Below are positions 1-15,493 of a DNA stretch of 20,000 bases, piece after piece. Position 1 is the first letter of the stretch; every line of letters starts with the position of its first letter. This DNA is from an uncultured virus (IMG/VR IMGVR_UViG_3300034103_001223) (lineage: Duplodnaviria > Heunggongvirae > Uroviricota > Caudoviricetes): the IMG/VR virus record IMGVR_UViG_3300034103_001223; one strand, written 5' to 3'. A program made the translations under genes and the position numbers. The notes below the pieces were generated by a model. That model ran no database searches, had not been told where the DNA came from, and saw nothing but the letters and a program-made list of their open reading frames with translations.

Positions 1-2
1 AA

Positions 3-515
3 TACGTCAATGACGGCTATTTCAGCATCGTTCGCGGGATGTTCCCGCTGGGAAACATGGATTACGAGAAGTCCATCCGGCAGTTCCTCATGGAGCCGAC
101 CGTTCAAGACCTCCTCGGCGACTCAAACTACTGGCGGCTGCGCATCGGCACGAGCTATCAGGCGCGAGACGCCAATCCTTACCTGAAGCCGCTCGCTTTC
201 GGATACGAGACAGACGACTTCGCCCCGGAGTGGCAGGCGGAGTTCACCACGGACGGAGATTCCTGCGAGGTGCTCTGGCATCGGATGACGGACAGGGAAA
301 TCCGCTGCCCTGACGACATGACGACCGCTCAATACTTGGCTGCAAACGTCAGGCCGGTGAAGTCGGAGAATTGGGTGGGACTTTTCCAGGGCCGTTTCCT
401 CTACTTCGAGTTGTCTGTGATTGGGAAGAACGAGCTTGGTGAGGTGATTCCGCCCGTGGGCGCGGTGTTCACGCTCAGTCGCTTTCAGGTGGATGCTCGG
501 GTGATGGCATCCTGA
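3..515 (+). CDS. 3' part of a probable phage tail/structural protein (possibly tail tubular B / P22 gp10-like C-terminus); 5'-truncated by the window
   Basis: The frame is open from base 3 (YVNDGYFSIVRG-MFPLG...), so ATG39 is probably internal. The beta-rich C-terminus (GRFLYFELSVIG...VFTLSRFQVDARVMAS*) resembles ends of podovirus tail/nozzle proteins. Product call is inference from pattern and context. Confidence 0.5.
   Translation, partial: YVNDGYFSIVRGMFPLGNMDYEKSIRQFLMEPTVQDLLGDSNYWRLRIGTSYQARDANPYLKPLAFGYETDDFAPEWQAEFTTDGDSCEVLWHRMTDREIRCPDDMTTAQYLAANVRPVKSENWVGLFQGRFLYFELSVIGKNELGEVIPPVGAVFTLSRFQVDARVMAS
481..515 (+). repeat. Left copy of 35-bp direct repeat GCTTTCAGGTGGATGCTCGGGTGATGGC(A)TC(C)TGA
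   Basis: 481-508 is identical to 1423-1450 (28 bp); 33/35 identity over 481-515 vs 1423-1457. Confidence 0.97.
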
Positions 516-1420
516 CAGCGGCTTACTATAAGCGTGGCAGCATCGCTGTGGACCCCAAATTCTTCGTAATCTGGAGGTGCAGTCTGATTCCTAAGCGACC
601 GAATGCAGGCTCTTGCGAAGTTGATCTTGTTTTGCTCAGAAACGAAGTCGTCGGCACTGGTGAGCACTACTCCAAACGCCTCTCTCGTTAGCGGGCCGAC
701 CCTCTTTTGAATCTCCATCGCCCTCGGTTGGAGAACGTGGAAATCTGGATACTTTGGGAAGTTGGCTGGAATCCCTAACATGTGGCAATTTACTGCCTCC
801 CTTACAGCATCAGTGTATGGACCTTCGTTTTCAATGGATACTGCAAGGGCAAGTTCAGCCTCCTTTTCGCGCTGCTTTTGCCGAGCTAGAACGCGCTTGC
901 GCTCATCCTCCTTCGCCTTCTTCTTTGCAGCAATACTGTCGCGCCTCTTCTGAAGCTCTTCAGGGGTGAGCTTTCTTCCGACTTTGGCTGGCTCAGAACT
1001 TCCAACGGCGCACAGCTTGCGAATGAACGGAGGATTGAGTTTCCCGTCCTCATCGTAAATTGCAAGATACGCAGTGTTGAGTGAGTCAATCTGGCTGAAC
1101 ACTTTTGAGATGGACTCGCAAATCTGACTCCCGTTCTCTTTTCGAGTTGCTCCGAGTAGCGTTACAGCTCGATCTCGAAGCCTCTTCTGGTCTTCTTCCA
1201 AGTTTTTTGCGTCCACCTCGGCAAGCAGCTTCCCAAGCTGCCGTTCTCCAAACTTGTTCACGACCTCGGTTGCTTCCGGGTCAACGCTTGAGAAGGACCA
1301 GTAGCAGCTCCGGTCAATTCTGAAAGCGGTTCGCTCTACTGGCTCGTCTCCTGATGAAACTCCAAACTCCCGCTCATACCACCCAAGATCGCGATTTAAC
1401 TTTGGCCTGTCTATGAACAT
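485..1420 (-). CDS. Hypothetical protein (311 aa) with central K/E/R-rich coiled coil; cargo of the repeat-flanked insertion
   Basis: Long ORF. Its ATG overlaps the last codons of the upstream gene (stop at 1411-1413) and its TGA stop lies inside the left repeat. No family recognised. Confidence 0.8.
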   Translation of the reverse strand: MFIDRPKLNRDLGWYEREFGVSSGDEPVERTAFRIDRSCYWSFSSVDPEATEVVNKFGERQLGKLLAEVDAKNLEEDQKRLRDRAVTLLGATRKENGSQICESISKVFSQIDSLNTAYLAIYDEDGKLNPPFIRKLCAVGSSEPAKVGRKLTPEELQKRRDSIAAKKKAKEDERKRVLARQKQREKEAELALAVSIENEGPYTDAVREAVNCHMLGIPANFPKYPDFHVLQPRAMEIQKRVGPLTREAFGVVLTSADDFVSEQNKINFARACIRSLRNQTAPPDYEEFGVHSDAATLIVSRCQDAITRAST

Positions 1421-1665
1421 GGGCTTTCAGGTGGATGCTCGGGTGATGGCTTCGTGATTCGTTTCACCTCCGTAATCACCCGCATAGCAGCAACTCCAAC
1501 ATTTCCAAACGTGGCGTGGTCCTCAATTCCTTGCGTTCGGCAGAGGTGTGAAAGGATGTCGAAGTTGTGACGCTTGGAGATTTCAGCAGCATCTTCCTTT
1601 GAGAGCTTGCTGAGAGCGTGTTCAGCATCAGCCACTGCCATTTCAGTCCACGACGGGTTATGCAT
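1411..1665 (-). CDS. Hypothetical protein (84 aa, MHNPSWTEMAVAD...)
   Basis: Start reassigned from 1749 to ATG1665, which overlaps the upstream stop (ATGCATAA), a typical coupled arrangement. Confidence 0.7.
   Translation of the reverse strand: MHNPSWTEMAVADAEHALSKLSKEDAAEISKRHNFDILSHLCRTQGIEDHATFGNVGVAAMRVITEVKRITKPSPEHPPESPCS
1423..1457 (+). repeat. Right copy of 35-bp direct repeat GCTTTCAGGTGGATGCTCGGGTGATGGC(T)TC(G)TGA
   Basis: Read directly from the sequence. The two mismatches (509/1451 and 512/1454) are synonymous third positions in the + frame (GCA/GCT, TCC/TCG). Confidence 0.97.
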
Positions 1666-1948
1666 TGTTAGAGGCTTGCAGTGCATCGTGCCACGCCTCG
1701 ACTTTTTCACGCACCATTTCCACCGCCATGCGTTGCGCGGTTTCGGCACTCACGGCATCGACCGGCACGGTATCCATTCCGGCCTCGTAGCAATGCATGA
1801 CCCACTTTTCGGGATAGCGGATGTGTCCACTTGTGACAACGATTCTCAGACCGCCGATTTCGGTTGTCCACGACGTAGGCTTTCGAGCCTTGTCGTCACG
1901 GCTGTATGATGTTGTGTCCTTCCAGTTCATATTGTTTTTCACGTTCAC
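1658..1948 (-). CDS. Hypothetical phage protein (96 aa)
   Basis: GTGA start/stop overlap with the upstream HTH gene and protein-like composition. ATG1930 is an alternative start. Confidence 0.75.
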   Translation of the reverse strand: MNVKNNMNWKDTTSYSRDDKARKPTSWTTEIGGLRIVVTSGHIRYPEKWVMHCYEAGMDTVPVDAVSAETAQRMAVEMVREKVEAWHDALQASNNA

Positions 1949-2283
1949 CTCTTAATCCACTTCTCCAAGCATCGGTTAAAAGTCTTCCTCGCAGCCGGTG
2001 ACAGGTGATTCAGCGGCTTCTCCGACACGGCAGCAGCCAGCAGGAATCGCCGCACTTTGAACGGCTTGAACAGGTCCACGCAGGCGGCGTCGGCAAAAGC
2101 TCCGCACACATCCACATTCACGCCTTCCCAAGAGGTCTTCACCGCCAACCGCTCCACCATGCGCAAGGACAGGCCGGAACGCTCTGCGAGCTGATTCCTT
2201 GAAAGAGGTTTCCGGTCCACCTTCGCCATCGCGGCGACGATGAAGGGGGGAACTTCGTCAAGGACTTGCGGGAGGGTTGGCAT
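1945..2283 (-). CDS. Cro/C1 (XRE)-type helix-turn-helix DNA-binding protein
   Basis: LSRNQLAERSGLSLRMVERLA...VNVDVCGAFADAACVDL matches the XRE HTH pattern. TGATG overlap with the upstream gene. Confidence 0.75.
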   Translation of the reverse strand: MPTLPQVLDEVPPFIVAAMAKVDRKPLSRNQLAERSGLSLRMVERLAVKTSWEGVNVDVCGAFADAACVDLFKPFKVRRFLLAAAVSEKPLNHLSPAARKTFNRCLEKWIKR

Positions 2284-2732
2284 CAGTTTGCCTGCGCATG
2301 AAACTTCTCCAGCGCGTTCATCTCATCGTCATTCAAGGTGATGGTCCCACCGGGAGCCGCATTGGCGAGCTTGGCGATGAACACCGCATCATCCACCGGA
2401 AGGTTCTCCACATGGCTCAACTCCACGAGGCGCTCTTTCAGAGCCGGGTTAAACTTCACTATGGCGTATCTCCGTGAGGCGGTGATAAAGGCGACGCTCC
2501 CATCAGCGAGCTTCTCCTTGCACCCCTGACACTCCGCCATCTTCAACTCTGGCGAGGTGAACAGCTTCGTTCGTTCAAACATCAAGCCGCAGATAGGGCA
2601 CATCCGGGTGAACCTCTGAGCCGACGCCACAGCCTTGTTCTTTCCGCTCGTCACCTGCGCCTTGGCCATTGAGGGGAGGTCGCCCCAAAGATTCGTCAGG
2701 CCGCGTGGTTTGTAGGGGTCGGGTTGCGACAT
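2283..2732 (-). CDS. Zinc-ribbon protein (CPICG...CQGC), 149 aa
   Basis: Two CxxC pairs. Start reassigned from TTG2831, which lies inside a hairpin, to ATG2732 (MSQPDPYK...), 7 nt after a putative -10. Confidence 0.7.
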   Translation of the reverse strand: MSQPDPYKPRGLTNLWGDLPSMAKAQVTSGKNKAVASAQRFTRMCPICGLMFERTKLFTSPELKMAECQGCKEKLADGSVAFITASRRYAIVKFNPALKERLVELSHVENLPVDDAVFIAKLANAAPGGTITLNDDEMNALEKFHAQAN

Positions 2733-2739
2733 GCCAGCG

Positions 2740-2768
2740 AGCGTCCGCCAGATTTGGCGGGGTGTCAA
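2740..2768 (-). promoter_or_regulatory. Putative sigma70 promoter TTGACA-17-GACGCT with palindrome CCGCCA-N4-TGGCGG in the spacer
   Basis: Perfect -35 at 2768-2763, 17-nt spacer, weak -10; inverted repeat at 2745-2760. Confidence 0.5.
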
Positions 2769-2820
2769 GGGGTTTCTGACAGTGTGGAGAGGGGTGAATC
2801 CTTGAGGGAGCGGAGCAGAG

Positions 2821-3095
2821 GCAAACTCCAACTGTTGCCAGTTAGAGTTGCAGAAGGGCAGATCCTCTCGGTCGCTTCGCTTCGGTTTGAACAGCCCTCC
2901 GGGACACCTTAACCATCGGAACCCGCACCAGCTTTTACGCGCTGGAACTGCTGTTATCAGTGTGCTCGGAACGGCTCGCGTCGGGCGGCTTGTGGCACAC
3001 TCTTTAAGGCAGCCGGTTTTTAGTCCATCTGCCCGTGTTTAACCTTCAACTGGCTGGAGCATTACCAGCAGGGAAGGGTTACGCCATCGGCGTCT
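2821..3095 (-). ncRNA. Candidate structured ncRNA, family not recognised
   Basis: Nested complementary pairs 3027-3034/2856-2863, 3004-3010/2906-2912 and 2995-3001/2959-2965; hairpin 2928-2945; terminal 11-bp hairpin with GCAA tetraloop at 2824-2849. No credible CDS here. Confidence 0.55.
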
Positions 3096-3211
3096 GAAAA
3101 AGGAAACACCCGACCTTTGTCATCCCGATGGGTGTGAAGCAATCTGGGAAACCTGTGGCCGGGGTGTTCGGTTTGCACAGGGGTCAAAATGATTTCTGAT
3201 TGCTTCACGCC
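3096..3211 (-). promoter_or_regulatory. Structured leader with alternative pairings ending in a terminator-like stem and U-tract (possible attenuator)
   Basis: GTGAAGCAATC pairs with GATTGCTTCAC (within 3198-3211/3131-3144). AACACCCCGGCC (3168-3157) pairs with GGTCGGGTGTT (3115-3105), followed by TCCTTTTT. Confidence 0.5.
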
Positions 3212-3214
3212 GCG

Positions 3215-3250
3215 AAGCTATATCAATAAAGATTGCTGTCAAGCTGTCAA
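3215..3250 (-). promoter_or_regulatory. Putative sigma70 promoter TTGACA-16-TAGCTT, with tandem TTGACAGC TTGACAGC overlapping the giant gene's stop codon
   Basis: TTGACA at 3250-3245 and 3242-3237, AT-rich spacer, TAGCTT at 3220-3215. Confidence 0.55.
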
Positions 3251-6200
3251 TCGCACCCGGCGAATCTTTTTCCTGCGGCTTCTCATTGGGCTAATCTTCC
3301 GGCGACGACCCGTGAGGCTGATGCGGCGAATCTTCGCCCGACGACGACCACGGGAAGCGGAAACCCCAACCGACTTCATCCGGCCAGACACCCCGCCAGT
3401 GAGTGAGACGCGACCGTAGGAGGGTTCGCGCACAGTGCCTCCAGGGCGATTCTCGGCGACATCCTCCTTGGTGATGTTCCCCGGCTTGCCAAAGAGCGCC
3501 TGTGCCCCGTCTTGCCACGCCTTGATGCCTTGGCGGATGACTTGGCCACGTTCTGTTGTGGCATCGCCAATGAGCTGCTTGTATTGCTCAACTGAAGGGC
3601 GGCGTCCGCCCAAGGCTGCGGTGACTGGATTGATTTCCTGATAGTCTTGCCACACGGATGCCTTGGCGGTCTTGGCGGCGACTTCCGGTGAGTCGCCCGC
3701 TTCGAGGCGTTGCTTGGTGTAGAACGCTTCTAGCTCGGCTATGTTCTTCTGAGCGGAAGCCTTGGCCTTAGAGAAGGCTTCAGTGTCGCCATCGCGTTGC
3801 GCCTGAGCCATGCGGCTAACATCATCGCTGATGGCGCGGCGTTGGACGGAGGTGTAGCCAGCAGGTCCAAAGACCCCAGCGGGAGGCGTCTCGATGCCTT
3901 CCACCTTGGCGTTCTCCAAAATCATGTTCTTGGTGATGTTCACCTCGCCGGGATTCATGCCCAGCAAGTAGTTCAGCTCCGCTCCACCAAACGACATTTG
4001 CAGGAGTGTCTTCCTGAGTGGGACAATCGCTTTCGTTACGTCTCCTGTATCCGAGAATATCTTAAACCCGCTCACCAAGTCCCGAAGCAGCTTGGATGCA
4101 GTTGAGAAAACGAACGCCCGCTGGGATGGGTCAAGCGGCTTCCGCCCATCTAGCCATCCGGTGACGCCTGAAATTGCATCGCCAAAGAAATACGTTGCCG
4201 CAGCGAGGTAGCGGCCAGCGGCAGCGGTCATGTGCTTCGGATTGGTCCAGAACTCTGAATCCAATGGAGTAACCCTGCCAGACCTTTGCCCCTGCATCTT
4301 TCTGCGCCACAGCTCGCCAGCAGCCTCAGCCGCTCCTTGGGTGATGAGCGCAATCGCAGCGATGCCGACATACATCGGCAGCTTGTGGAGAGCTTGCAAG
4401 ACGGCCTTCCTGTCGCGGGAGCCGCCCAGTGTGATGCGCAGCAGCTTTAATGTGGCATCTGCCGGGTATCCGGTCAGGGCCAGTAAGGTTCGCCAGATGG
4501 GATACGCCTGCCCCGAGGCTGCCCGATTCATTGGCAGCGCGGCGTTGTTCTCCGCAACCATGCTCCGCTGCACCGCTTCATAGGTGCGCGGGTCGAACAC
4601 TCTGGCTGGCTTTCCAGCCGTCTTGTCCTGATAGTATTGCAGGAGGTTCTTTTCCAACTGGAATCCTTCAGCGGAGGCGCTGTTTTCGAGGAACCTTCGG
4701 ACTTCTCCTAGCGAGTTCCTTCCATCCTGCTCGTTGCTGGTAGGCAGCCACTCGGAAGGCATCAGCATTGAGTCCTTGTTGGTCGGGTCAATCCGGGTGA
4801 TGCCAGCCTTGGCCAGCCGCTCACCGAACACCATCGCAACATCCTGAAGGCGCTGCTCAAGGTTTCCGACTAGCCCAAGTGAAAGGGCGTTCATTGAGGT
4901 GTCGCTCGTTTCAAGAACGCTGCCACGGACGAACGCCTTATTGGTGTCCAACGCGAAGTTTGCGACTCGGTTGGCGAAGTGGATTGCCCGAGAGAGTGCA
5001 TTCGCCTCCGCATCTTCCTGTTCTTTGCGCGTCTGGAACTGGCCGGTTTCGCGCCACGATTGGCCAGATACCTCAGTCCAGTCTTGGCTGGTATCAAAGC
5101 CCATGCGGTGAACCGCCGCGATGCTGTCCCTGACCGGCTGCGCTCCAACCATCGGTTTGCGTAGCGCAAATTGGATTGGCTTGAACAAGGCTTCGTCAGC
5201 CAGCACATCCACAAGTTTCTGGATAGTCTTCTGCGCCTGCGGGTCGCGCCCCATGCGGCGGTCAATAAATCCGCTGACATTACGGGCTGTCAGATAGGCC
5301 GTGTTCAAGTAGCCACGAGGGATGTTCGTCAACGCCTTCCAGAGTGCCAACTTGAGGCTCATGTAGTGCATCTGCTGCGCCACGTTGAACACCTGACCCT
5401 GACCTTGTGATGTGTTGCGAAGGGCTAGTGCGACTCCGGCCAGAATGTTTCCAAGTGTCGCATCTACGATCTTCCGGCCTATCTTGGTTGGAATTATGTC
5501 AGGGCCACCCTTGCGGTAGCTGTCCTCGAACTTCTTTAGGGATTCCTGAAGAAGTTGCAGCACGTCTTGCATTTCCTGCTGGTTGCCACCGTAGTTTTCG
5601 GACAGCAGCTTCTTGTCAGCATCCGTGGCTCCCGCAGCGCCCATTCGGTTCAGCCGATTCTCCAACTCCCTGATGGACAGGCGCAGCGCATTAGCGAAGT
5701 CCACCAAGACGGTGTGATTAGCGCGTGAAAGGGCAGTGGTGCGCTCAATGCTCCCCAGCGGGCCGTAGTCGTAGTATCTGGAAGGAAGTTCTAGTTTGGC
5801 GGCAGGCTTGGTGAACTCGTTTTCAGAGGACAACGCAATTGAGAGTCCGCTGTTTTTGGCATTGTCTTCAGTGCGCTCCTTCTGGATACGCTGCGCATGG
5901 GAGAGGTATTGGAGCAGCTCGTTGTTGAGTCCTTCCCGAGCGGTGTCCAGTGGGTTCTTCCCGCTCGTAACAGGAATCTCAGCAGCAATCAGGTCCACCA
6001 AGTCCTGCACGCTGTTCACCTGATCCATGTTCCCGGCTAGCCATCGTGCGGCAATCCGCTTCTCGGCAGCCGCCATCTCGGCGGACTGCTTGAAGGTCCG
6101 GTCGGTGCGTGGACTGTTCAAGATGTGCTGCTTCAAATCAATTACGTTCTCGTTCCAGTGCTTGACCACTGGATCGGTGCTGCTGGCGGAAAGGTCCGTT

Positions 6201-9200
6201 GCGGGAGTGAATCCTTGAGGATTTTTACCGTAGGCACTTGTCACATCAGCGATGAACTGTGTAGCTGAACGGTTCAGGTGACGCGGCATACCCTTGTCGC
6301 CGGTGTAGGAGCCTTTCCGGGTAATTTCCTTGCCGCCACGTTCGTAGCGGACGCCGGTTACGGGGTCAATCTCGGTGACTTCGCGGCGGAGCTTTTCCTC
6401 GAACGCCAGCGTCCGATTAAAGAAGGCCATGTCCTCCTTGGTGACGACCTGATTGGCGGTTGGTAGCAGAAACCCAACCCGGAGACGGGAGCCGTATTCG
6501 CGTCCGTAATGCCCCATCTCATTGAGCAAGATGCGGTAGGTGTCCTCGCTCTTAATGTTGTGCGAGCGCATCGCCTCAGATTGCAGCTTTGCCAAGTCCT
6601 GAAACTGCGCTCCAACCTTCTTTGAGTCCAGATAGCCGCGCTTGTATCTAGCAACTTGCGTGCGGAGGATTCCGCCAGCGAATCCGCCCACCAATTTGCT
6701 AATCTGCTCATACTGCCCGAAGATGTTTCCGAGGATGTTGCCCTTCATCATCTTCCGCATTATGGCCGGAGCGAGATACTGGACAGCTTTATCCAAGTCG
6801 CCGAGGTCTAGGAACATCGGCCAAACTTGCTTATTCAGAGCGTGCTTCAGGCCGATGTAATCAGCCCGGTCGAAACCAAGTTGCTGTGGAGTCGGATTAG
6901 CAGGGTTGAGTTTGTGTGCTGCTTCAGCGCGCTCGTAGTCGCCCACATAAAGCTCGGCGTTCTGGACGTATTTCCAAACCTTGTCCCGAGTGGATTGAAG
7001 GTCCAGCGCATTGCCGTCCACGTTGACCTTCAACTCTGCCTGATACTCCTTGCTGGGAGTTCCGAAGCCGCGCAGGACCGGACCCGTTGGACCCAGCACC
7101 ACCATGTTTTGCGCTCCACCAGCACCCAGCGAAACCGCTCCCCGCAACTGCTGGAACGCCGGAGAGTTGGCCGTCTGATTGAACAACGCCTGACCCTGCT
7201 GCAAGGTGCGCAGTCGAAGGACGCTCTGAGCAAGCTGCCGTGCGGCGGTCTGCCTAGCAGCGTTCGCCTTGGTGCCCTGCGCATTGGCTTGCTGGACAAT
7301 CTGGCTGGTGAGGTTCGCTGCCAGCGCCATACCAACTGGATTCCCGCTCGTGGCAAGCTGCGCAATGGACTGCATCTGAAGCGGAGGACTGTTCGCCAGC
7401 TTCGCAGCAGCATCATCGGTGAGCGTCACGATAGCACTCGCAAGGGAAGGCGATTGCTGAACCACCTTGAGCACTTCCCGAAGCGCCGCCTCAGAGATGC
7501 CAAGGGATTGCGCAACGCTCGCTCCGAAAGCAGGCATGTCGCCGGGAGCCATCAGGAAATCGTAGAGCCAGCGGTTCTGGTCGAGCGTCCGGCCCAAGTT
7601 CGCCGCTAGGGTGGTGATGGCTCCCGTGGAAGCCTCTAGGTTGGCGATGTTGGCAGCGTCTCCGACAGTGCCGGTCAAGCCCATCTCCCCCTTGGCAGCT
7701 TTCAAAGCATCCGCCACGAGGACATCAGCCAGGCCGGAAGTCACCTTGGCATCGGCGATGTCAGCCTCCGCCAGCCGGATGTCCTTGAGCAACCCCTTCT
7801 CCTCAGAGTTCAAAAGGTCGTCCATCTGCGACTTCGCAATGTCGAACTCATCGAAGGACTTCTGCAAGCTGGTCAAGACAGATGCCCGCTGCTCATCCGT
7901 TAGGGTTCCCTTCTTCAGCGCATCCTTCACAGTCGCATCGAACGAAGCCCACTTGTCGTAAATCTCCCCAAGGCGTGCCACCTCGGAGATAGACGTGGAG
8001 GAATCCATCAGAGCACGAGTCAGGTCAGCCGCCGCCTTGGCCTTCTCCGACAGGTCGCGCAGTTCGGTGATGCCTTTGCCGAAGAACTCTTGCACTGGCT
8101 CCAAGGTGAGCGCATCACGCTTGGACTGAAGCTCCACCCTGGAAGCGTTTGCGCGGGTAATCTCCTCGGCGCGTTCGCCGATGGATTGCTGTCCACGGCC
8201 ACGGTCGGTGGTAACTGGCGTGAGGTTCGCTACCACCTTCTCCTTGGCGGCAATCAGCTTGTCCAGCTTCAGGATTTCATCTGCCGGAGCCTTGATGCGG
8301 ATGTAGTAGTCCCGCAGCTCTTTCAAGGTGGCCAGCTTTCCAAGGTTGTCCACGAGCCTTCGCGCTTGCTGCTCGAAATAGACCTCCGCTTGCAGCGACT
8401 TCACCAGCTCAGGCCGGAACTGGACTCCCATCTGAGCGAGCTTTGTGACCAGCTCATCGCCGACGACGATTTGGCCGTTCTCAATGGAGACGCCATCGCG
8501 GATGTTCGCCCGCATGTCATCCGTCACGCGGTCTTGGGGAAGCTGTCGAAGCCTGCCTTCATGGAGGCTCACCAGATTGTTCAGCTCAGAGCGTGCATTC
8601 CTGAAGGATTTACTCTCGTAGGCCAGTCCTTCAAGCTGCCGACCCGCCTGCTCGAACTCCTCAACCTGCTGCCTGCCGAGGTCTGCCACAGCTTTTCCAG
8701 CAGCAGCTACGAGGGAAGGCTCAATGGCGCGACCTTGGACTTCGGTGGCGTCGGATTGGCTTACCGGAGCACCCAGCGAATACCGGATGTCCGGCGACTC
8801 CTGCTGGAATCGCTGCGAGAGGGGGATTGGTTGGCCGTCGTTATCATAGGTGATGGGGTCGGCGGACTTTAGCTGTGATGGAGAAAGCGCGATGAAAGAA
8901 TCAAGCCCACGCTCACCTTCGACCTCGTTCCGATAGACGATTGACTCGACTCCTTTTGAAAGCAGTAAGCTGCGAAGCTCTGCGTTGCTATCGCTCGCGT
9001 TGAACACCTTGTCGTATTCCGCGTTGCTAATCGGAACGCCAGCCTTGCGAAGCTCTCGAATCACGGACTGATAATTCCACGTTCCCAAATCGCTGGTCCG
9101 AACTGGATTCCCCAGCTTTGCGTAGAACGGAAAGACTGTTCCGAACTGGGATGCAGCAGACTCAGGCCCAAGGTGAACTCCAAGCTCCAACTCTCCAGAT

Positions 9201-12200
9201 GGAAGGTTGAAAACTTGGAACGCTAAATCGTTTCTACCTTCGGACACCACGCCGCCTCCGAGCTGGGACTGCCACAGCTTTGCATTTTCAACGTCCTGCT
9301 GGGTAACTCCCAGCAAGCCATCATTCGCAAGCCGTTGGTAAGTGGATGTGGCACCCATCCAGTCTTTCAAGCCAACCCTAGTCGCTAATTCTTGCAGCTT
9401 TTGCTTTGCTGACTGGTTCAACGGGGCCGTCTTTCCTTCGGTGTAGTTCGTGGAATTCGTGCCGTGGTATAGCTTGCGGCCATACCCCGCCCCCCTCGCA
9501 GCTTCATCCACCAAGGCTTGCACCTCCTGCATGTCGCCGCGCTGGACCGCTGCGAGGTATTGCTGGTCGAGTTGGTTCTGGAGGGGGCCAGTGGAGAACA
9601 TCGCCTGACCACCCATCACGGAATCCTTGATGGCGGGGGTGAGGGGGAGGGCGTTGATGGTCGCCGCCTCCTTTTGAGCTTTTTGAAACGCTGCAAAATC
9701 GGCATATTGAGTTGGCTTTCCACCGCTTTGATTGATGGCTGCCACCCCCACCTTCCCGCCAGCATTCCTCACCGCAGGCAGCTTCCCGACCACATTGCGG
9801 AAGTCCACGTCGTAGAGCTTCTTCAAGCCTTCGCCGCCGACTTTCAAGCCTTCGCCAGCAATCTCCTCGGACGTGCCGGGCTGAAGTGCGGCAGCCTTGG
9901 ATGCGAATTCCTTGCCAATGTAGGACTCAAGGCCATCCTCATTTAGAAGGTGTTTCTGACCAAGGAACGATCCATCCTTATTCCACGCTTCATAGCCCAA
10001 CCCGCCAGAAGCGTCCTTTTTAATCAGCAATTTAGAGAGCTGCTTTTCGAGCGAGTATCTTTCCGCCTGCTGCGCTCCAGTCGTCCAGCCAACCACATCA
10101 AAGCCATTCTCAGCGGCGTGCCTCAAGGCCCACTTGAAGGCAATCTCCCGCCAGTTCTTCTGGAAGAGCGCAGGCATCTTCTCGAAGTTATCCTTCTGTG
10201 GTGCTTGGACCTCCTCCAGAAACAACATCCGCTGGCCATCCTGCGTGGTGCGTTCGTTGAAGCGTAGCCGCACGATGGGGTTTGCGATGGAGCTATATTC
10301 GGGGTGGCCGTCGGACCAGTTCAAACCTTGCAAAGCAAGCCTTGCAGAGCGGTAGTCATCAATCGCTCTTTGAGATTCATTAGGAATATCAAAGTTGATT
10401 GCGTAGTCCTTGTCGTTCTTGACTGCCTCCCACGCTTCCTGCGCATTGTTAAACCCGAGGTAGTCGAGGTCGCGCAATGCGGATTTCATCCTCTCCCATT
10501 GCGGTGTAGTGTCTGGAATTTGCCGCTTTGGAACTGTCAACAGCACTTCCCTGTAGGAGCCTTCCTTCGCGCCGGGGAGCTGCCACCTTGAAAAGTAGGT
10601 TTTCGGCTCTGCGTAGGCGTCGTATTTCTTGCGGTATTCGATTGGGAGCTTGTTGTAGAACTCCTCTGACAAGTCGAATCCAGAACGCTGCACGTCTGGG
10701 TTCTTGAGAAATACCTGCTCCTGCTCTTTCAGCCAAATCGGATAGCCGGACGCCTTCCCCCCCAACGTCACATCCTTCACCTCCACCTGATTCGCCTGCA
10801 AATAGTCCAGCACCTCCTGCTTGGAATACATCTTTCCGTCTTCCAAATCGTTCACCCCGGTAAGGCCAATCTCCCCTTGAGCGATACCTTCACTCCACGA
10901 TTTCCCAAGCGTCGGGGTAGGCTTGCCCTTCGACCACTTGTTGATGACGCCCTTCCACTTCTGCCCGTTGGCATTCTGCATGGGCGTCTCCTCGACAGCC
11001 CGAACCAGCCGGGAGTAGAACGCCTTCACCATCTGCCTGATGCCCCCCTCCGCATACACCTCTCCACCACTCCTCAAAGACCGCTTCCCAGCAGCCGCCG
11101 CTTTCAGCGCCTTCGCCAGCACATCCTGCGCATCCCGCTCCGTGAACACCTTCCCGGTGAACTTCCCGTAGAGCCTCTGAATAGCACCAATCACCGCATC
11201 CCACAGTCGGGCGAGAATCCCCCGCTGTTCCTGCGTCAACTGCTGCTTCTCCAGAATATCCGCCACCGCCTCCATGCGAAGCTGCTCCTCGGAGATGTTC
11301 CCGTAAGCTGCCTTCGCTGAAGCAAGCTGCTCTGGGGTGAGCGAGGCGACCAGTCTGGAAAGCTCTTTCTGAACAGCCTTGTCGTTCTGGATGGCGTGGA
11401 AGGCTTCCTCCACGAACACCGCCCGAGCTTCTTGAGGAGAGCGCAGGTAAGCGGCGTTCAACCAGATGGTCCCGGTAGCGGGGTCATACCAGCCGCGCAC
11501 CTCGCGGCCATTGAAGACCTTCCCGTAGTTGTGCGTGACCTGAAAGTTCGGCGGGGTGGCGCTGTCAAAGAACAGCTCTCGCACCGCTTGCTCCACCTGC
11601 ATCTTGGAGAGCGACTGGGCGGGGCGGGCGGAGGGGGTGGACCCGAGGGAGAGTTGCTGGTCGCGCTCACGAATCAGATGCTCGGCGTAATCCAGGCCAG
11701 CCTTCGTGAGAGTTTTCTCCAAAAGGTATCCACCTCTGTCGCTGGACAAAGCTCGCTGTCCCTCTTCGACTTCCACCTTACCCCCTTCTTGGATTACAAG
11801 CTGGCGGATGATGTCACGTCGGGATAGCTCCTTGCCAAGGTAGCGAAATTTTGCGGTGAGCTGTTTGACCACTGCCCCGCGCTTCATCGGAGTCATTCCA
11901 TCCGTGAAGGTTCCAAGGTCTTCACGTTCAGCTTTTGCCTTAGCCTCTGCGCTCTTCTCGGCTTCCATCTTGCGAAGCGATTCCGCCCGCTGCTCCCGCC
12001 GTGCAGCCTCTCGCGTGCTTTCGGCAACCGCCTCTTGCTCTGTGTCGTAGATAGAGTCTCCAAAGCCTCGCTTTTCACCCTGCTGAACCAGCCACTTCAT
12101 CTCACCTCTCCGGTCCATCTGGTAAATTGAGCCGACGCCTTCCTTGGGGATGGCTACCCGAGCCTGCTGCGCTTCCGCTTCACCTTGTCCGGCAGCTTGC

Positions 12201-15200
12201 GATACTTCACCGGGCTTTCCTTCTGCCATTTGTGCAGGAGTTCCGGGTGGTTGATTGCGAAGAACTTCCACTGGCGCTTGCTCTTGAGGGGCATAGGGAG
12301 GTTGGGGGGAGGGTTTAGCTGGCTGCTTGCCTTTGAAAACGTAGAGGTCGCCTTCACGGACGTAGCCGGGAGGGAGTTTTCGCTTCAGCTTATATTCCTC
12401 GACTGCGATGGCGTTAAGGCTGGACCTCTCTCTTGCCGCGTTCAGAATAGTTGCTGCGTGCTCTCGCTTGGCCTGCGCTTCAGACTTGTTTCTGACAGTG
12501 CCCATCGTTGTCTTACCAATTCCCCAACCTCCAAGCGGGGTTCTTTCGCTTAGATAACGATTTGGAGACAATCTCCATGATGGCTTGCCCGAAGGATTCC
12601 AAGAGCTTGGTTCGCTATCCACATCTGGACCCAGCTCCAAATTATCGCCGCTCTCAACCCACCTGCCAGTCATCCCTAACTGACTCCCGTTATACCCAAA
12701 CAATGCGCTAGTGACGCGGGAATTGACTGGCTGATTATTCTCAACAGCAGACTTGATGGCAGCCTTTGCGGCCTCTGTGGCAGTCTTGTTATCAAGACCG
12801 CTTGCACGCCAGTCATCCAGCGACATCAGCTCAGGAGGTTTCACCGCAGCCGGAGCAGCCTCCCCCTTCTGCTTCAGCTCGGGATAGTCAGCGAGGACGG
12901 TGGGAGGGACGGGCTTGCCTTTCTTAATCGCATCAGTCAGTTCACGACGATGAAGGTCGTCCGCTTCTTCCTGTGTGTATGACTCATGTCTCGGCTCTCT
13001 GAGGCGAATCTCAGCATCATCTTTTTGGGTCTGCTTGCGGTATTCCTGCCGTGTCATTTGCCACGGTTCCTTCACCGTTTCCGCCAGCTTCGATTTGATG
13101 ACGGAATCCGTGTAAGCCTTCCACTCAGCGGAAGTGTATTCCGCCTTCGTCTTGAGCGAACCATCCGGTCGTCGTGCGTAAGCAACACCCTCCCCCTCCA
13201 ACTCCCTAGCAGCCCTCTCCGCGTAACCCCCACGGATGTCCTCCACAGCCGCCGCCAAGTCGGGGTCCACGGGCGACACCCTGCCGCGCTCGATGCCAAG
13301 CTCTCCCACGGGACGCGCTGGCATGGTCGCTTCAGGGCGGGTGGTGAGGCGCGTGTCGTAGGGTTGACCTTCGAGGGGTTCCGGGAGGGAGGGAGCTTCT
13401 GGAAGAGCAGTCGTCCGCTTCGGCGCTGCCCGCTCAAGGAATCGGTTTGGGTCGTAGATGGTATATTCACCTGTGTCCGGGCTGAATGTTCCAACATACC
13501 CTCGACGCTGTAATTCTGCGTCAATGTTTTTGACCTGCCTGAGAGCGGGTTCAGTGCGGTCCAATTCACGCAGGTTCGCAATGAGCTTGGCCGGGACATC
13601 TATAGAAACCACTCCCTTCGCGCCGTATGCCCCCACGGCTGCCGCCTCATCCGCTAAGAAGTATGTGGCCTTACCTCCAAGTCCAGTGGGTGTTTGCTTG
13701 GCGGGATCAAACCGATCAAATGCCGCACCTTTACCATGATATAAACGGACTGACTCAGCCTCCGTGGCAAGGCGGGGCGCTGCGGCCTGCGCTGCCGGGG
13801 TGATGGCTGTGCGGCGGGGCTTGGGGGTGACAGTCGGAGGAGCACCAAGCAAGTCCAGTTCTCCAGCCAGCTTCCGAGCGGTGGTCACATCGCCAGCAGC
13901 TCTTGCCGCATTGATGCGCTGTTGAAGCTGTTCGGTAGCATCCAGCGGAACGGTGCGCTTGGAATCCACCTTGGCCGGTGGCTCTGGCAGCGCGACCTTT
14001 GGAGATGGAGGGGGAAGCGGAAACTCGAAGGGCTTGCCCCGAGCAGCTTCCGACATGGCCTTCGCCTGCTGGACGTTCTCAAGAAAGCCGAACTCCTTGA
14101 ACCCACTGACAGCGGTGGTCCCGTCATCGAACTTGACCGTGACAGTCGCGTTGGGGTTCCCGTCCACCTTCGGACCAGTCATCGCCGTGACAGTGCCGAC
14201 CTTGCCGAAACCGCCGCCAGCTTGGGACAACTTCACCACCTTGTTGCCAATGCCGAACGAGTCCGGCGATTGGGCGAGGATGTTCGGAGACGATGGTGAG
14301 GTGCTCCACGTTGAGAGTGGTTGGTTCAGCATCAACCCGCTCACCTTTGGCATCGGGGGCGGCTCAATAGGAACGCTCACCCGCTGGCTTGCTTGAGGAG
14401 GGGCTACCTGCGGGGCCGGGATAGGGGCAGGTGCGACGGGAGCTGCTGGAGGGGTGGCAGGAGCGGCGGTGGTAGGAGTTGCTGCTGGTTGCCCACGTCC
14501 TGAGACTAGCTGCGCACTGCCGCCCATCGCCGCGCCAGCGACAAAGCCCTGAGCGGCTGCCTCGGCAAGACCCTGATCCCACGGCTTTCCAAGAGCGAGG
14601 TTGCTGAACATCTGCTCCTGCATGGACTGCGGAAGCTCCTCCAAAGCACCTTCTTGTAAGGCACCAGCAATGATGGCCTTGAACTTCGGGAGAGCGGTCT
14701 TCTGTGCTGCTTGGGTGCCACCTCTGGCGAGTGCCGTCTGGATGTCTTCCAATCCGAGCTTCTGGGCAGCCTTGCCGCCGAGGATACCGAAAGCAGCGGT
14801 TCCGGCACCGCTTGCAGCAGCGTATCCAGCCTGTTCCCAAGTGAGGAATCCATCGGGAGATTGTTGCCGAATGTTCTCCGCAGCGGACCCTGCTCCAACA
14901 AGCCCTTCACCAACAGCGCCAGCCACAACCGGAGCCGACGCACCGGCTGCCCACGTTGCGAACTTGGGGCCAATCTTAGCAATCCCCTTCAAAGCCGCCT
15001 GAGAAAGTGCGCCACCACCAAACATCAATGGAAGCGACTCGATGATGGATTCAGCAGCAACCGTCGGGTTCTCCACCAAGGCTTGCACCGTCGGGATGAA
15101 TCCCTTGGCCTGCGCCACCCGACCCTGCGCCATCTGCTGTTCCCCTGTCTGGTAGGAGGAGAGGATGTCCTTCGCCTCACGAAACTTGAAGCCAGCATCT

Positions 15201-15493
15201 TCGACAGCTTTACCAGCGCGACCCTTGGTAACTATGTCCGCTAAACCGACCGCCGCTTCGGGGACGCTGATAATGCCTTTAGCAAATGCGATAGCCGGAT
15301 CGGCCACCACTCGGCGCAAGGGAGAGCTGTCGTCTATGATGTCCTGCTCGACCCTTGCGGATTCGCGCTCGGCATTGAGCTTGATCCACTGGCTATCCCG
15401 CTCAGTCATGGGCTGAAGCGAATCCAGCGGCGGTGGAGTAAATGCTTCCGGCTCCAGTGAGTCAACTGGAGGGGGTGTGAATTCAAAGGCCAT
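3239..15493 (-). CDS. Giant phage polyvalent / internal virion (ejection) protein, 4084 aa, with two ART-like domains and a degenerate zincin-like domain
   Basis: Uninterrupted 12.3-kb ORF. Contains a Gly/Ala-rich hydrophobic N-terminal region, ART-PolyVal-like motifs (LYHGT...PFYAKLGNP...IVYRNEVE...PSQLKSADPITYDNDGQPIPLSQRF...DIRYS), a second ART-like module (LYHG...F..FD...TYF...GY.G...EY.IYDP), a GWYDP...IWLNA...EEAFH module, and a long helical C-terminal half. Confidence 0.9.
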   Translation of the reverse strand: MAFEFTPPPVDSLEPEAFTPPPLDSLQPMTERDSQWIKLNAERESARVEQDIIDDSSPLRRVVADPAIAFAKGIISVPEAAVGLADIVTKGRAGKAVEDAGFKFREAKDILSSYQTGEQQMAQGRVAQAKGFIPTVQALVENPTVAAESIIESLPLMFGGGALSQAALKGIAKIGPKFATWAAGASAPVVAGAVGEGLVGAGSAAENIRQQSPDGFLTWEQAGYAAASGAGTAAFGILGGKAAQKLGLEDIQTALARGGTQAAQKTALPKFKAIIAGALQEGALEELPQSMQEQMFSNLALGKPWDQGLAEAAAQGFVAGAAMGGSAQLVSGRGQPAATPTTAAPATPPAAPVAPAPIPAPQVAPPQASQRVSVPIEPPPMPKVSGLMLNQPLSTWSTSPSSPNILAQSPDSFGIGNKVVKLSQAGGGFGKVGTVTAMTGPKVDGNPNATVTVKFDDGTTAVSGFKEFGFLENVQQAKAMSEAARGKPFEFPLPPPSPKVALPEPPAKVDSKRTVPLDATEQLQQRINAARAAGDVTTARKLAGELDLLGAPPTVTPKPRRTAITPAAQAAAPRLATEAESVRLYHGKGAAFDRFDPAKQTPTGLGGKATYFLADEAAAVGAYGAKGVVSIDVPAKLIANLRELDRTEPALRQVKNIDAELQRRGYVGTFSPDTGEYTIYDPNRFLERAAPKRTTALPEAPSLPEPLEGQPYDTRLTTRPEATMPARPVGELGIERGRVSPVDPDLAAAVEDIRGGYAERAARELEGEGVAYARRPDGSLKTKAEYTSAEWKAYTDSVIKSKLAETVKEPWQMTRQEYRKQTQKDDAEIRLREPRHESYTQEEADDLHRRELTDAIKKGKPVPPTVLADYPELKQKGEAAPAAVKPPELMSLDDWRASGLDNKTATEAAKAAIKSAVENNQPVNSRVTSALFGYNGSQLGMTGRWVESGDNLELGPDVDSEPSSWNPSGKPSWRLSPNRYLSERTPLGGWGIGKTTMGTVRNKSEAQAKREHAATILNAARERSSLNAIAVEEYKLKRKLPPGYVREGDLYVFKGKQPAKPSPQPPYAPQEQAPVEVLRNQPPGTPAQMAEGKPGEVSQAAGQGEAEAQQARVAIPKEGVGSIYQMDRRGEMKWLVQQGEKRGFGDSIYDTEQEAVAESTREAARREQRAESLRKMEAEKSAEAKAKAEREDLGTFTDGMTPMKRGAVVKQLTAKFRYLGKELSRRDIIRQLVIQEGGKVEVEEGQRALSSDRGGYLLEKTLTKAGLDYAEHLIRERDQQLSLGSTPSARPAQSLSKMQVEQAVRELFFDSATPPNFQVTHNYGKVFNGREVRGWYDPATGTIWLNAAYLRSPQEARAVFVEEAFHAIQNDKAVQKELSRLVASLTPEQLASAKAAYGNISEEQLRMEAVADILEKQQLTQEQRGILARLWDAVIGAIQRLYGKFTGKVFTERDAQDVLAKALKAAAAGKRSLRSGGEVYAEGGIRQMVKAFYSRLVRAVEETPMQNANGQKWKGVINKWSKGKPTPTLGKSWSEGIAQGEIGLTGVNDLEDGKMYSKQEVLDYLQANQVEVKDVTLGGKASGYPIWLKEQEQVFLKNPDVQRSGFDLSEEFYNKLPIEYRKKYDAYAEPKTYFSRWQLPGAKEGSYREVLLTVPKRQIPDTTPQWERMKSALRDLDYLGFNNAQEAWEAVKNDKDYAINFDIPNESQRAIDDYRSARLALQGLNWSDGHPEYSSIANPIVRLRFNERTTQDGQRMLFLEEVQAPQKDNFEKMPALFQKNWREIAFKWALRHAAENGFDVVGWTTGAQQAERYSLEKQLSKLLIKKDASGGLGYEAWNKDGSFLGQKHLLNEDGLESYIGKEFASKAAALQPGTSEEIAGEGLKVGGEGLKKLYDVDFRNVVGKLPAVRNAGGKVGVAAINQSGGKPTQYADFAAFQKAQKEAATINALPLTPAIKDSVMGGQAMFSTGPLQNQLDQQYLAAVQRGDMQEVQALVDEAARGAGYGRKLYHGTNSTNYTEGKTAPLNQSAKQKLQELATRVGLKDWMGATSTYQRLANDGLLGVTQQDVENAKLWQSQLGGGVVSEGRNDLAFQVFNLPSGELELGVHLGPESAASQFGTVFPFYAKLGNPVRTSDLGTWNYQSVIRELRKAGVPISNAEYDKVFNASDSNAELRSLLLSKGVESIVYRNEVEGERGLDSFIALSPSQLKSADPITYDNDGQPIPLSQRFQQESPDIRYSLGAPVSQSDATEVQGRAIEPSLVAAAGKAVADLGRQQVEEFEQAGRQLEGLAYESKSFRNARSELNNLVSLHEGRLRQLPQDRVTDDMRANIRDGVSIENGQIVVGDELVTKLAQMGVQFRPELVKSLQAEVYFEQQARRLVDNLGKLATLKELRDYYIRIKAPADEILKLDKLIAAKEKVVANLTPVTTDRGRGQQSIGERAEEITRANASRVELQSKRDALTLEPVQEFFGKGITELRDLSEKAKAAADLTRALMDSSTSISEVARLGEIYDKWASFDATVKDALKKGTLTDEQRASVLTSLQKSFDEFDIAKSQMDDLLNSEEKGLLKDIRLAEADIADAKVTSGLADVLVADALKAAKGEMGLTGTVGDAANIANLEASTGAITTLAANLGRTLDQNRWLYDFLMAPGDMPAFGASVAQSLGISEAALREVLKVVQQSPSLASAIVTLTDDAAAKLANSPPLQMQSIAQLATSGNPVGMALAANLTSQIVQQANAQGTKANAARQTAARQLAQSVLRLRTLQQGQALFNQTANSPAFQQLRGAVSLGAGGAQNMVVLGPTGPVLRGFGTPSKEYQAELKVNVDGNALDLQSTRDKVWKYVQNAELYVGDYERAEAAHKLNPANPTPQQLGFDRADYIGLKHALNKQVWPMFLDLGDLDKAVQYLAPAIMRKMMKGNILGNIFGQYEQISKLVGGFAGGILRTQVARYKRGYLDSKKVGAQFQDLAKLQSEAMRSHNIKSEDTYRILLNEMGHYGREYGSRLRVGFLLPTANQVVTKEDMAFFNRTLAFEEKLRREVTEIDPVTGVRYERGGKEITRKGSYTGDKGMPRHLNRSATQFIADVTSAYGKNPQGFTPATDLSASSTDPVVKHWNENVIDLKQHILNSPRTDRTFKQSAEMAAAEKRIAARWLAGNMDQVNSVQDLVDLIAAEIPVTSGKNPLDTAREGLNNELLQYLSHAQRIQKERTEDNAKNSGLSIALSSENEFTKPAAKLELPSRYYDYGPLGSIERTTALSRANHTVLVDFANALRLSIRELENRLNRMGAAGATDADKKLLSENYGGNQQEMQDVLQLLQESLKKFEDSYRKGGPDIIPTKIGRKIVDATLGNILAGVALALRNTSQGQGQVFNVAQQMHYMSLKLALWKALTNIPRGYLNTAYLTARNVSGFIDRRMGRDPQAQKTIQKLVDVLADEALFKPIQFALRKPMVGAQPVRDSIAAVHRMGFDTSQDWTEVSGQSWRETGQFQTRKEQEDAEANALSRAIHFANRVANFALDTNKAFVRGSVLETSDTSMNALSLGLVGNLEQRLQDVAMVFGERLAKAGITRIDPTNKDSMLMPSEWLPTSNEQDGRNSLGEVRRFLENSASAEGFQLEKNLLQYYQDKTAGKPARVFDPRTYEAVQRSMVAENNAALPMNRAASGQAYPIWRTLLALTGYPADATLKLLRITLGGSRDRKAVLQALHKLPMYVGIAAIALITQGAAEAAGELWRRKMQGQRSGRVTPLDSEFWTNPKHMTAAAGRYLAAATYFFGDAISGVTGWLDGRKPLDPSQRAFVFSTASKLLRDLVSGFKIFSDTGDVTKAIVPLRKTLLQMSFGGAELNYLLGMNPGEVNITKNMILENAKVEGIETPPAGVFGPAGYTSVQRRAISDDVSRMAQAQRDGDTEAFSKAKASAQKNIAELEAFYTKQRLEAGDSPEVAAKTAKASVWQDYQEINPVTAALGGRRPSVEQYKQLIGDATTERGQVIRQGIKAWQDGAQALFGKPGNITKEDVAENRPGGTVREPSYGRVSLTGGVSGRMKSVGVSASRGRRRAKIRRISLTGRRRKISPMRSRRKKIRRVRLTA

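Follow-up and report, generated by a model that had tools for sequence, protein, structure and literature searches.

The locus described here lies at the start of a 20-kb stretch of DNA (20,000 nucleotides, hereafter the window) from an uncultivated lake-water phage, recorded in IMG/VR as IMGVR_UViG_3300034103_001223. It holds a single orphan gene, here called the cargo, that is enclosed by two copies of the coding end of its neighbour. The neighbour is an open reading frame (ORF) on the plus strand (3-515) that forms the 3′ part of a virion structural protein gene and ends in FQVDARVMAS and a stop codon. Its full-length homologue of 654 amino acids (aa) in a related contig (L012) matched phrog_3287 'virion structural protein' with E = 5.9e-24. 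The cargo is a 311-aa ORF on the minus strand (485-1420) that fills the space between the repeat copies. Its ATG (1420-1418) lies 2 nucleotides (nt) from the right copy. Its stop codon (487-485) falls within the left copy, though in a different frame, which gives the cargo an overlap of 31 nt with the structural gene. The cargo is preceded on the same strand by an 84-aa orphan gene (1411-1665), the stop of which overlaps the cargo start by 10 nt. The tail of this 84-aa protein is encoded antisense through the right copy and reads ...KPSPEHPPESPCS.

The two repeat copies occupy positions 481-515 and 1423-1457. In the repeat search they were direct, 35 nt long, identical at 33 of the 35 positions (94%) and spaced by 942 nt. 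The first 28 nt were the same, the mismatches were found at 509/1451 and 512/1454, and the similarity ended at both 35-nt borders. A 26-nt degenerate pattern of the core had exactly two matches in the window when up to 3 mismatches were allowed, with 0.00 expected from 200 shuffles. A third member of the repeat family D1 (1579-1613, 63% identity) failed this 3-mismatch search and was taken as chance. The left copy is the working end of the structural gene, and its antisense strand encodes the last 10 residues of the cargo. The right copy is not translated in the plus frame, where it would read the same ten residues and a stop; with respect to that frame, both differences between the copies are at third codon positions. 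The initial annotation of this DNA had reported 35-bp repeats around one 311-aa ORF, both encoding FQVDARVMAS with two silent differences, and the coordinates, identity and spacing were all confirmed. It had also reconstructed an empty allele, and the removal of one 942-nt unit indeed places the TGA at 477-475 in the frame of the 84-aa gene, which would then end in PPESD and overlap the structural gene by 41 nt (475-515).

The arrangement was found in several data sets. All 226 sampled words of window 100-2300 were present in three runs, each of which is a possible source of this DNA and which are not clearly independent of the window. Contigs that bridge the junctions with at least 99% identity were recovered from four more runs: records 2 and 3 of X4 and record 8 of X5 span the repeat borders with at least 31 letters on each side, and record 15 of X6 and record 22 of X7 span the border between the cargo and the right copy. 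The identical two-copy structure was also present in two other public contigs, L005 and L027. Taken together, the two contigs, the three runs with all words and the bridging contigs rule out an assembly artefact. In the 25 contig pieces from the four runs, which had low depth and from which rare forms would have been dropped, no empty junction, circle joint, loose end or variant was seen; in X5-X7 this applies to the covered parts.

The structural gene was carried by 12 IMG/VR contigs, nine of them close relatives (at the protein level, 93-99% identical in the last 170 residues), two of them distant (72%) and one cut off. The nine, the window and L027, a Joint Genome Institute (JGI) contig that was the only locus obtained from a metagenome scan with the cargo as query, constitute the 11 close sequences compared here. 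No match to window 1-3200 was found among GenBank phages by blastn, and no relative of the structural gene or of the 84-aa family was found in bacterial and archaeal species genomes. In the 11 close sequences, the space between the structural gene and a conserved 112-aa gene on the opposite strand (1945-2283 in the window, minus strand; nine loci at 87-96% identity) holds different genes, each of which begins at, or just past, the stop of the 112-aa gene. The slot is empty in L006, where the border genes overlap. It contains a 105-aa orphan (Y) in L003 and, in L010 (4473-5372, minus strand), a 299-aa homologue of Acb3, a protein that inhibits the cyclic oligonucleotide-based anti-phage signalling system (CBASS); this homologue matched PF25187 with E = 6.1e-58 and 196.9 bits against a cut-off of 27. 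In L007, L008 and L009 it contains a 110-aa DUF3310 protein (E = 1e-16), for which the PHROGs label is 'nucleotide kinase'. The slot gene of L011 (1693-2505, minus strand) resembles an endonuclease gene: its 270-aa product matched NUMOD3 (E = 1.5e-10, above the cut-off) and phrog_314 'homing endonuclease' (E = 4.5e-16), and weakly GIY-YIG (E = 0.0031, 18.2 bits against a Pfam cut-off of 22.6). The cargo occurs alone in L004, with an Acb3 homologue in L005 (5409-6314, minus strand), with Y in L027, and with the 84-aa gene and a 96-aa gene in the window. The distant L012 has a 183-aa gene (phrog_3704) at the same place. On this comparative evidence, the junction between the structural gene and the 112-aa gene is an accessory-gene hotspot.

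In the empty L006 the 112-aa gene (4473-4841, minus strand) continues on the antisense strand over the structural gene end as far as a stop codon that corresponds to 477-475, and its tail reads ...WIKRPSPEHPPESD. It thereby gains 10 extra residues, PSPEHPPESD, from the antisense strand of the structural gene end. Judged from this allele, the ground state is a pair of overlapping convergent genes, as had been proposed, with the 112-aa gene rather than the 84-aa gene as the minus-strand partner. Slot genes that abut the structural gene likewise take their tails from its antisense strand, in two frames. The minus-strand TGA at 475-477 serves as the stop for those that directly abut it in the first frame (the 84-aa family and the Acb3 homologue of L010, with tails in KPSPEHPPESD, as well as the 112-aa gene of L006), and the second frame gives tails in QDAIT(R/L)AST and is used by the cargo and the DUF3310 gene. 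As the unrelated 84-aa, Acb3 and 112-aa genes have a common tail, these tails are borrowed read-through and not conserved domains. At the borders of the Acb3 cassette of L010, two similar 9-nt strings (4505-4520 and 5360-5385, minus strand, I-K-R and I-K-K codons) were noticed, which occur once in the empty L006 (4500-4520). This hints that other slot genes may also have entered via short-homology joins.

The 942-bp unit, comprising the cargo and one repeat, adjoins three different neighbours, and the junction between the cargo and the right copy was identical in all three stacked alleles. Cargo-less alleles were found in L003, L010 and L006, the first two of which have a single repeat copy. 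The proposal that the cargo forms a separate unit of one gene, which may be there or missing at a junction of convergent, overlapping genes, was borne out. When compared from the first base of the right copy onwards, L005 and the cargo-less L010 showed 0 differences over the first 900 nt, which cover the 35 nt and the whole Acb3 gene, and L027 and the cargo-less L003 showed 0 differences over the first 580 nt. The neighbour is altered at its tail: the Acb3 homologue ends in PPESD in L010 and in PPESPCS beside the cargo unit in L005. Six proteins homologous to the 84-aa gene product were found, with 60-91% identity; in IMG/VR there was no close relative of the gene, just three marginal short matches. 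Four of the six homologues end naturally in PPESD, the tail that had been predicted for the empty allele, one ends in PPESG and one in PPESGSK, and none has the PPESPCS tail of the window. The homologue with PPESG is as long as two of those with PPESD (82 aa).

The structural gene preserves further signs of exchange. L005 and L027 showed 0 differences from the window-equivalent ∼341 to ∼1440, a stretch that takes in the final ∼140 nt of the structural gene, the cargo, and the greater part of the right copy. In the 100 nt preceding ∼341 they showed 13 differences, and their right-hand neighbours were unrelated. A block of identity between divergent flanks indicates that ∼1.1 kb was recently exchanged between two backgrounds, with the left edge in the structural gene and the right edge within the 35 nt. 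The last bases of the right copy correspond to the resident allele, since L005 is identical to L010 there and L027 to L003. The two silent differences between the copies thus arise because the right copy is the working structural gene end from another lineage. Over its last 120 nt the structural gene is 93-100% identical among the four carriers of the cargo, as opposed to 69-94% between carriers and non-carriers. In the window this gene is a mosaic, which is L005-like up to ∼430, like the cargo-less alleles from ∼440 to ∼505 and of the cargo type from 509. Correspondingly, the first 28 nt of the left copy are of the common (GCTCGG) type seen in most cargo-less alleles and its final 7 nt match the type that all four carriers have. 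When the cargo is compared among the window, L005 and L004 in steps of 100 nt, stretches without any difference alternate with stretches that have 12-13. The mosaic patches in both genes indicate that short-tract recombination is common in the population.

These data are probably best explained if the repeat is a duplicated gene end that acts as a portable homology arm, with which the cassette would move by ordinary phage homologous recombination and without an enzyme of its own, and if the copies differ because the parental lineages carried different alleles. The cargo start would once have been joined illegitimately to a resident structural gene, 35 nt short of its end. This join would have placed the cargo in front of the resident slot gene, and the extra 35-nt copy would from then on have provided a short arm of homology. 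Two crossovers, one located in the structural gene and the other within the 35-nt copy, for which the right copy is the proposed site, could add or remove the cargo beside whichever slot gene the partner carries. The structural gene would be kept whole, the neighbour would be altered only in its last residues, and the cargo would need no mobility enzyme. Phage recombinases are reported to be relaxed, acting on short or diverged homology (PMC3945230).

Seen in this light, the interpretation in the initial annotation is partly supported, although the observation on which it was based is confirmed. The insertion had been called scarless, which holds for the structural gene but not fully for the 84-aa protein, whose tail is altered (ESPCS, compared with ESD in four of the six homologues). 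The synonymous recoding that had been noted is not a designed feature and is better described as two alleles, the right copy being that of the resident structural gene and the last 7 nt of the left copy that linked to the cargo. A mechanism of mobility, which had been left unexplained, is offered by the identical blocks, as they fit homologous recombination with crossovers in the structural gene and in the 35-nt copy. For the possibly excisable or homing element that had been envisaged no evidence was found, be it of self-mobility, of a homing activity of the cargo or of a circle. The target duplication flanks the cargo in L005 and L027 as well; in L004 the right copy is missing, and the cargo is followed by ∼14 nt and then by the 112-aa gene. 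The empty junction that was predicted has a counterpart in cargo-less relatives with other neighbours, and none was seen in the contigs of the four runs, in which rare excision would escape notice. The ∼14 nt in L004 (5397-5412) resemble the first codons of other slot genes. They may be the remnant of a deleted neighbour, in which case L004 would be derived from a stacked allele.

Several points weigh against recombination through a portable gene end. The cargo-less form of the window allele, with the structural gene followed directly by the 84-aa gene, was not found as DNA and is represented by homologous proteins only. The initial join would show, in our reading, at most 1 nt of microhomology. 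The direction may be gain or loss: L010 and L003 are not simple deletions of L005 and L027, nor are L005 and L027 simple insertions, and the structural gene upstream of the block differs in both pairs. A length of 35 nt is short for homologous recombination, and no recombinase was identified in this phage. The patch of the common type in the window (∼440 to ∼505) enters the left copy, which would also fit the integration of a minimal unit via the 35 nt alone. Finally, the functional guess for the cargo depends on its neighbourhood only; the protein has no similarity to Acb3, and its structural model is poor.

An endonuclease could be involved in trans. Genomes without a GIY-YIG enzyme would be cut in the 3′ end of their structural gene by the enzyme of a sister phage, and repair from a co-infecting genome would copy whatever its slot contains, with the cargo unit as a hitch-hiker. 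This would supplement recombination through the duplicated gene end and not displace it, and the site of the break would explain the position of both the crossover and the duplication. The NUMOD3/GIY-YIG/phrog_314 gene in the slot of L011 is a candidate source. The structural gene beside it is 90-95% identical to its relatives up to the window-equivalent 360 and only 63-75% identical over the last 120-150 nt (L011:1585-1740), although the encoded end is nearly unchanged (FQVDAKVLSS), as one would expect where a target beside a homing endonuclease gene has become resistant to cutting. The flank transferred together with the cargo in L005 and L027 is in line with this, and for MobE and SegB of phage T4 trans-homing and preferential inheritance of flanks are reported (PMC2790892, PMC2330249). 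However, the GIY-YIG match of the L011 protein is below the Pfam cut-off and no cleavage site is known, the gene was present in only one of the 11 close sequences and in none of the cargo carriers, and the divergence at the gene end is raised in all relatives and not in L011 alone. We regard such a contribution as unlikely, though conceivable. Less credible is a self-contained cassette, in which the 942-bp unit would excise as a circle and re-enter at an attachment-like 35 nt. The cargo protein, as a new kind of recombinase or nuclease, or else a phage enzyme dedicated to the task would carry out the reaction, in the manner of integron cassettes or of integrative elements that restore the 3′ end of the gene they target. 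The exact and identical boundaries in all three stacked alleles with three neighbours, the resemblance of the hybrid copies to attL and attR, the reach of the common-type patch of the window into the left copy, as if only the 35 nt had been used, and the orphan status of the cargo, which has no assigned fold, would all agree with such an element. Nevertheless, no recombinase, transposase or nuclease family was matched, the ∼140 nt of the structural gene transferred in L005 and L027 are not expected of a site-specific reaction, and all five cargo proteins end in a tail that is antisense to this one gene end, with no second target evident. Moreover, L004 has the cargo without the right copy, and the right copy has no stable fold. 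The contigs of the four runs contained no joint, which is weak evidence. On balance, this possibility is very improbable. A combined proposal, in which a promoterless orphan and its attachment-like 35-nt coding copy form a minimal mobile cassette that leaves as a mini-circle and enters the slot of any relative with the aid of the cargo or of a GIY-YIG enzyme in trans, so that alternative genes could be stacked where they would otherwise displace one another, and with the cargo as a new counter-defence protein, is in our opinion rather doubtful.

The presence of direct repeats raises the question of loss. If the stacked arrays were ancestral and the unit had never been gained, the cargo-less alleles would be products of deletion between the 35-nt copies, a reaction to which direct repeats of this length are readily prone, and L010 and L003 in fact show 100% identity with the stacked alleles, counted from the repeat. 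Over the last 120 nt, however, their structural genes are just 85% and 91% identical to those of L005 and L027, respectively, so that they are not simple deletion products, and the occurrence of the same 1.1-kb block in two backgrounds requires exchange between genomes in any case. We give very little credence to loss as the only process. The remaining explanations, a target-site duplication of the transposition type or an assembly artefact, can practically be dismissed. The direct repeats that exactly flank a single gene speak for them, yet there are no terminal inverted repeats and no transposase, and the copies differ in a lineage-specific manner. Transposases are not known to make duplications anywhere near as long as 35 nt. 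Recombination between lineages via the duplicated gene end remains the preferred explanation for the distribution of the cargo.

Close homologues of the cargo protein are rare. Just four were present among 5.8 billion clustered proteins, with 77-96% identity, and a profile search against 1.84 billion representatives returned only its own cluster. The ratio of nonsynonymous to synonymous substitution rates (dN/dS) was 0.15-0.32 in three pairwise comparisons. Two types of cargo allele were distinguished by an in-frame length change of 7 residues in a divergent segment (window 1130-1215, residues 70-95). The dN/dS values together with the in-frame length difference show that the cargo is a real gene under purifying selection. 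Searches of Pfam, PHROGs, PADLOC and NCBIfam gave sub-threshold matches only (FliG_N, E = 0.11; phrog_1179, 0.021; Cas13c, 0.015; SseB, 0.073). In agreement with the initial annotation, no recombinase, integrase, transposase, GIY-YIG, HNH, LAGLIDADG or His-Cys box domain was recognized in these family searches. The best match of a sequence profile against the PDB had E = 0.09, and no usable match was obtained from the ESM Atlas with the whole cargo or with residues 196-311. An AlphaFold2 model based on a five-sequence alignment was poor, with a mean predicted local distance difference test (pLDDT) score of 52.5 and a predicted template modelling (pTM) score of 0.32. With low confidence, it comprised a short N-terminal beta region followed by long helices. 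Foldseek comparison of this poor model with the PDB gave no match at E ≤ 0.001, and the rows returned were coiled-coil-like noise. The possibility that the cargo belongs to the Acb3 family was considered and rejected, as PF25187 was not matched and the best comparison with the Acb3 homologue of L010 had E = 0.89. Acb3 itself is described as an inhibitor of the CD-NTases of CBASS (bioRxiv 10.1101/2025.07.23.666291). Because the cargo shares its slot with an Acb3 homologue, it is most likely, albeit with low confidence, a counter-defence or host-takeover accessory protein.

The left copy and the first bases beyond it, on the side of the cargo, form a hairpin (477-523). Its predicted DNA fold on the plus strand has -11 kcal/mol, with z values of -2.5 on the plus strand and -2.7 on the minus strand. 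The right copy had no stable fold in the same test (z of +1.2 and +0.8). The hairpin may be an RNA end or a stability element at the convergent junction of cargo carriers. In a promoter and terminator scan of window 1-3400, no promoter-like site was found at either repeat copy and no terminator-like site was found at all, compared with 4.7 expected in shuffles, and convergent transcription seems to meet here without an intrinsic terminator. The repeat search detected no inverted repeats at the ends of the 942-bp unit. The G+C content of the cargo (0.47-0.55) is lower than that of the border genes (0.55-0.63), and the remaining slot genes are also below the borders.

The second slot gene of the window, the 96-aa orphan (1658-1948, minus strand), starts with the GTG at 1948 or with an ATG further in. 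It matched no family in Pfam, PHROGs, PADLOC or NCBIfam and is missing from all IMG/VR relatives, as window 1460-1947 matched no locus. The minus-strand block that ends at the slot consists of a 4084-aa ORF, a 182-aa gene and the 112-aa gene, which is the last conserved one. For the 4084-aa ORF (3239-15493, minus strand), a weak ART-PolyVal match below the cut-off was obtained (E = 3.8e-05), and nothing else. It looks like a giant protein of the polyvalent type that would head the operon terminated by the slot.

The nearest described system is the shuffling of promoter-early stem-loop (PeSL) cassettes in T4-type phages, in which orphan genes in hyperplastic regions are flanked by short conserved direct repeats (Arbiol et al., 2010; PMC2839356). 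In that study, a close relative carries one chimeric repeat where the cassette would be, exchange between repeats was put forward as the means by which single genes are deleted, inserted and moved, and mini-circles were demonstrated (PMC2839356). The locus described here likewise has a cassette between direct repeats and a single repeat in the relatives L003 and L010. Compared with that system, it differs in that the repeat duplicates, a single time, the 3′ coding end of a neighbour, with two copies per 20 kb, and not a dispersed promoter/stem-loop module, in that it measures ∼35 nt and not ∼100 nt, and in that the site is an overlapping convergent gene pair and not an intergenic spacer. The concept of the moron is reportedly due to Hendrix and colleagues, and phage accessory genes have reportedly been treated in further work (bioRxiv 10.1101/2023.04.06.535777). 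Like a moron, the cargo is an extra gene of lower G+C content between genes that are adjacent in a relative (L006), and its slot also holds a counter-defence homologue (Acb3). Unlike a moron, it lacks its own promoter and terminator, overlaps at its start with the end of the upstream gene, and is flanked by a 35-nt duplication that documents the exchange. Transposons and insertion sequences were rejected as models, on account of the missing transposase and terminal inverted repeats and of the 35-nt duplication.

Certain integrative elements use the 3′ end of a gene as their insertion site and supply a substitute for it, whereby the hybrid sites attL and attR are formed. Duplicated gene ends as repeats, an intact gene, hybrid copies and empty sites in relatives are features shared with the cargo locus, which differs in having no tyrosine or serine recombinase family in the cargo or the adjoining slot genes, in its size of less than 1 kb with one orphan, and in the co-transfer of the flank. 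Free-standing homing endonucleases of phages spread by intronless homing and trans-homing, as described in three reports (PMC2330249, PMC2790892, PMC2988022). As described there, homing genes resemble the cargo in being present or absent between conserved genes; the ∼140 nt of flank that are identical along with the cargo in L005 and L027 would also suit homing, and are equally explained by plain recombination. The GIY-YIG/NUMOD3 gene in the same slot of L011, beside a recoded, target-like gene end, adds to the likeness. In contrast to the homing genes in these accounts, the cargo has no endonuclease domain, and homing normally leaves no 35-nt duplication. Integron cassettes are promoterless units of a single ORF with one recombination sequence each, which are stacked at a fixed site. 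The cargo unit corresponds to them in all of these respects. In contrast, no integrase of the IntI type was found in the scanned subset of ORFs of the window and the loci, the right copy has no attC-like fold, and the repeat is carried by the cargo unit only and not by the other slot genes, so that this model, too, was rejected.

Phage accessory slots are usually viewed as sites at which alternative genes replace each other. The addition of a gene without the loss of the resident one, at overlapping borders that leave no spacer, is rarely visible at base resolution, and here natural variants give the whole series of empty, single and stacked alleles. What is new with respect to known modular shuffling is that the repeat is the coding end of a neighbour, which would allow insertion between overlapping convergent genes. 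A duplicated gene end of 35 nt would suffice to turn a slot in which genes are replaced into one to which they are added, with the structural gene kept intact across backgrounds. The endonuclease-like slot gene beside a recoded gene end provides a testable link between homing endonucleases and the turnover of accessory genes. Given the Acb3 homologue at the same place, the orphans of this slot (the 311-aa cargo and the 84-aa, 96-aa and 105-aa proteins) are candidates for new counter-defence functions.

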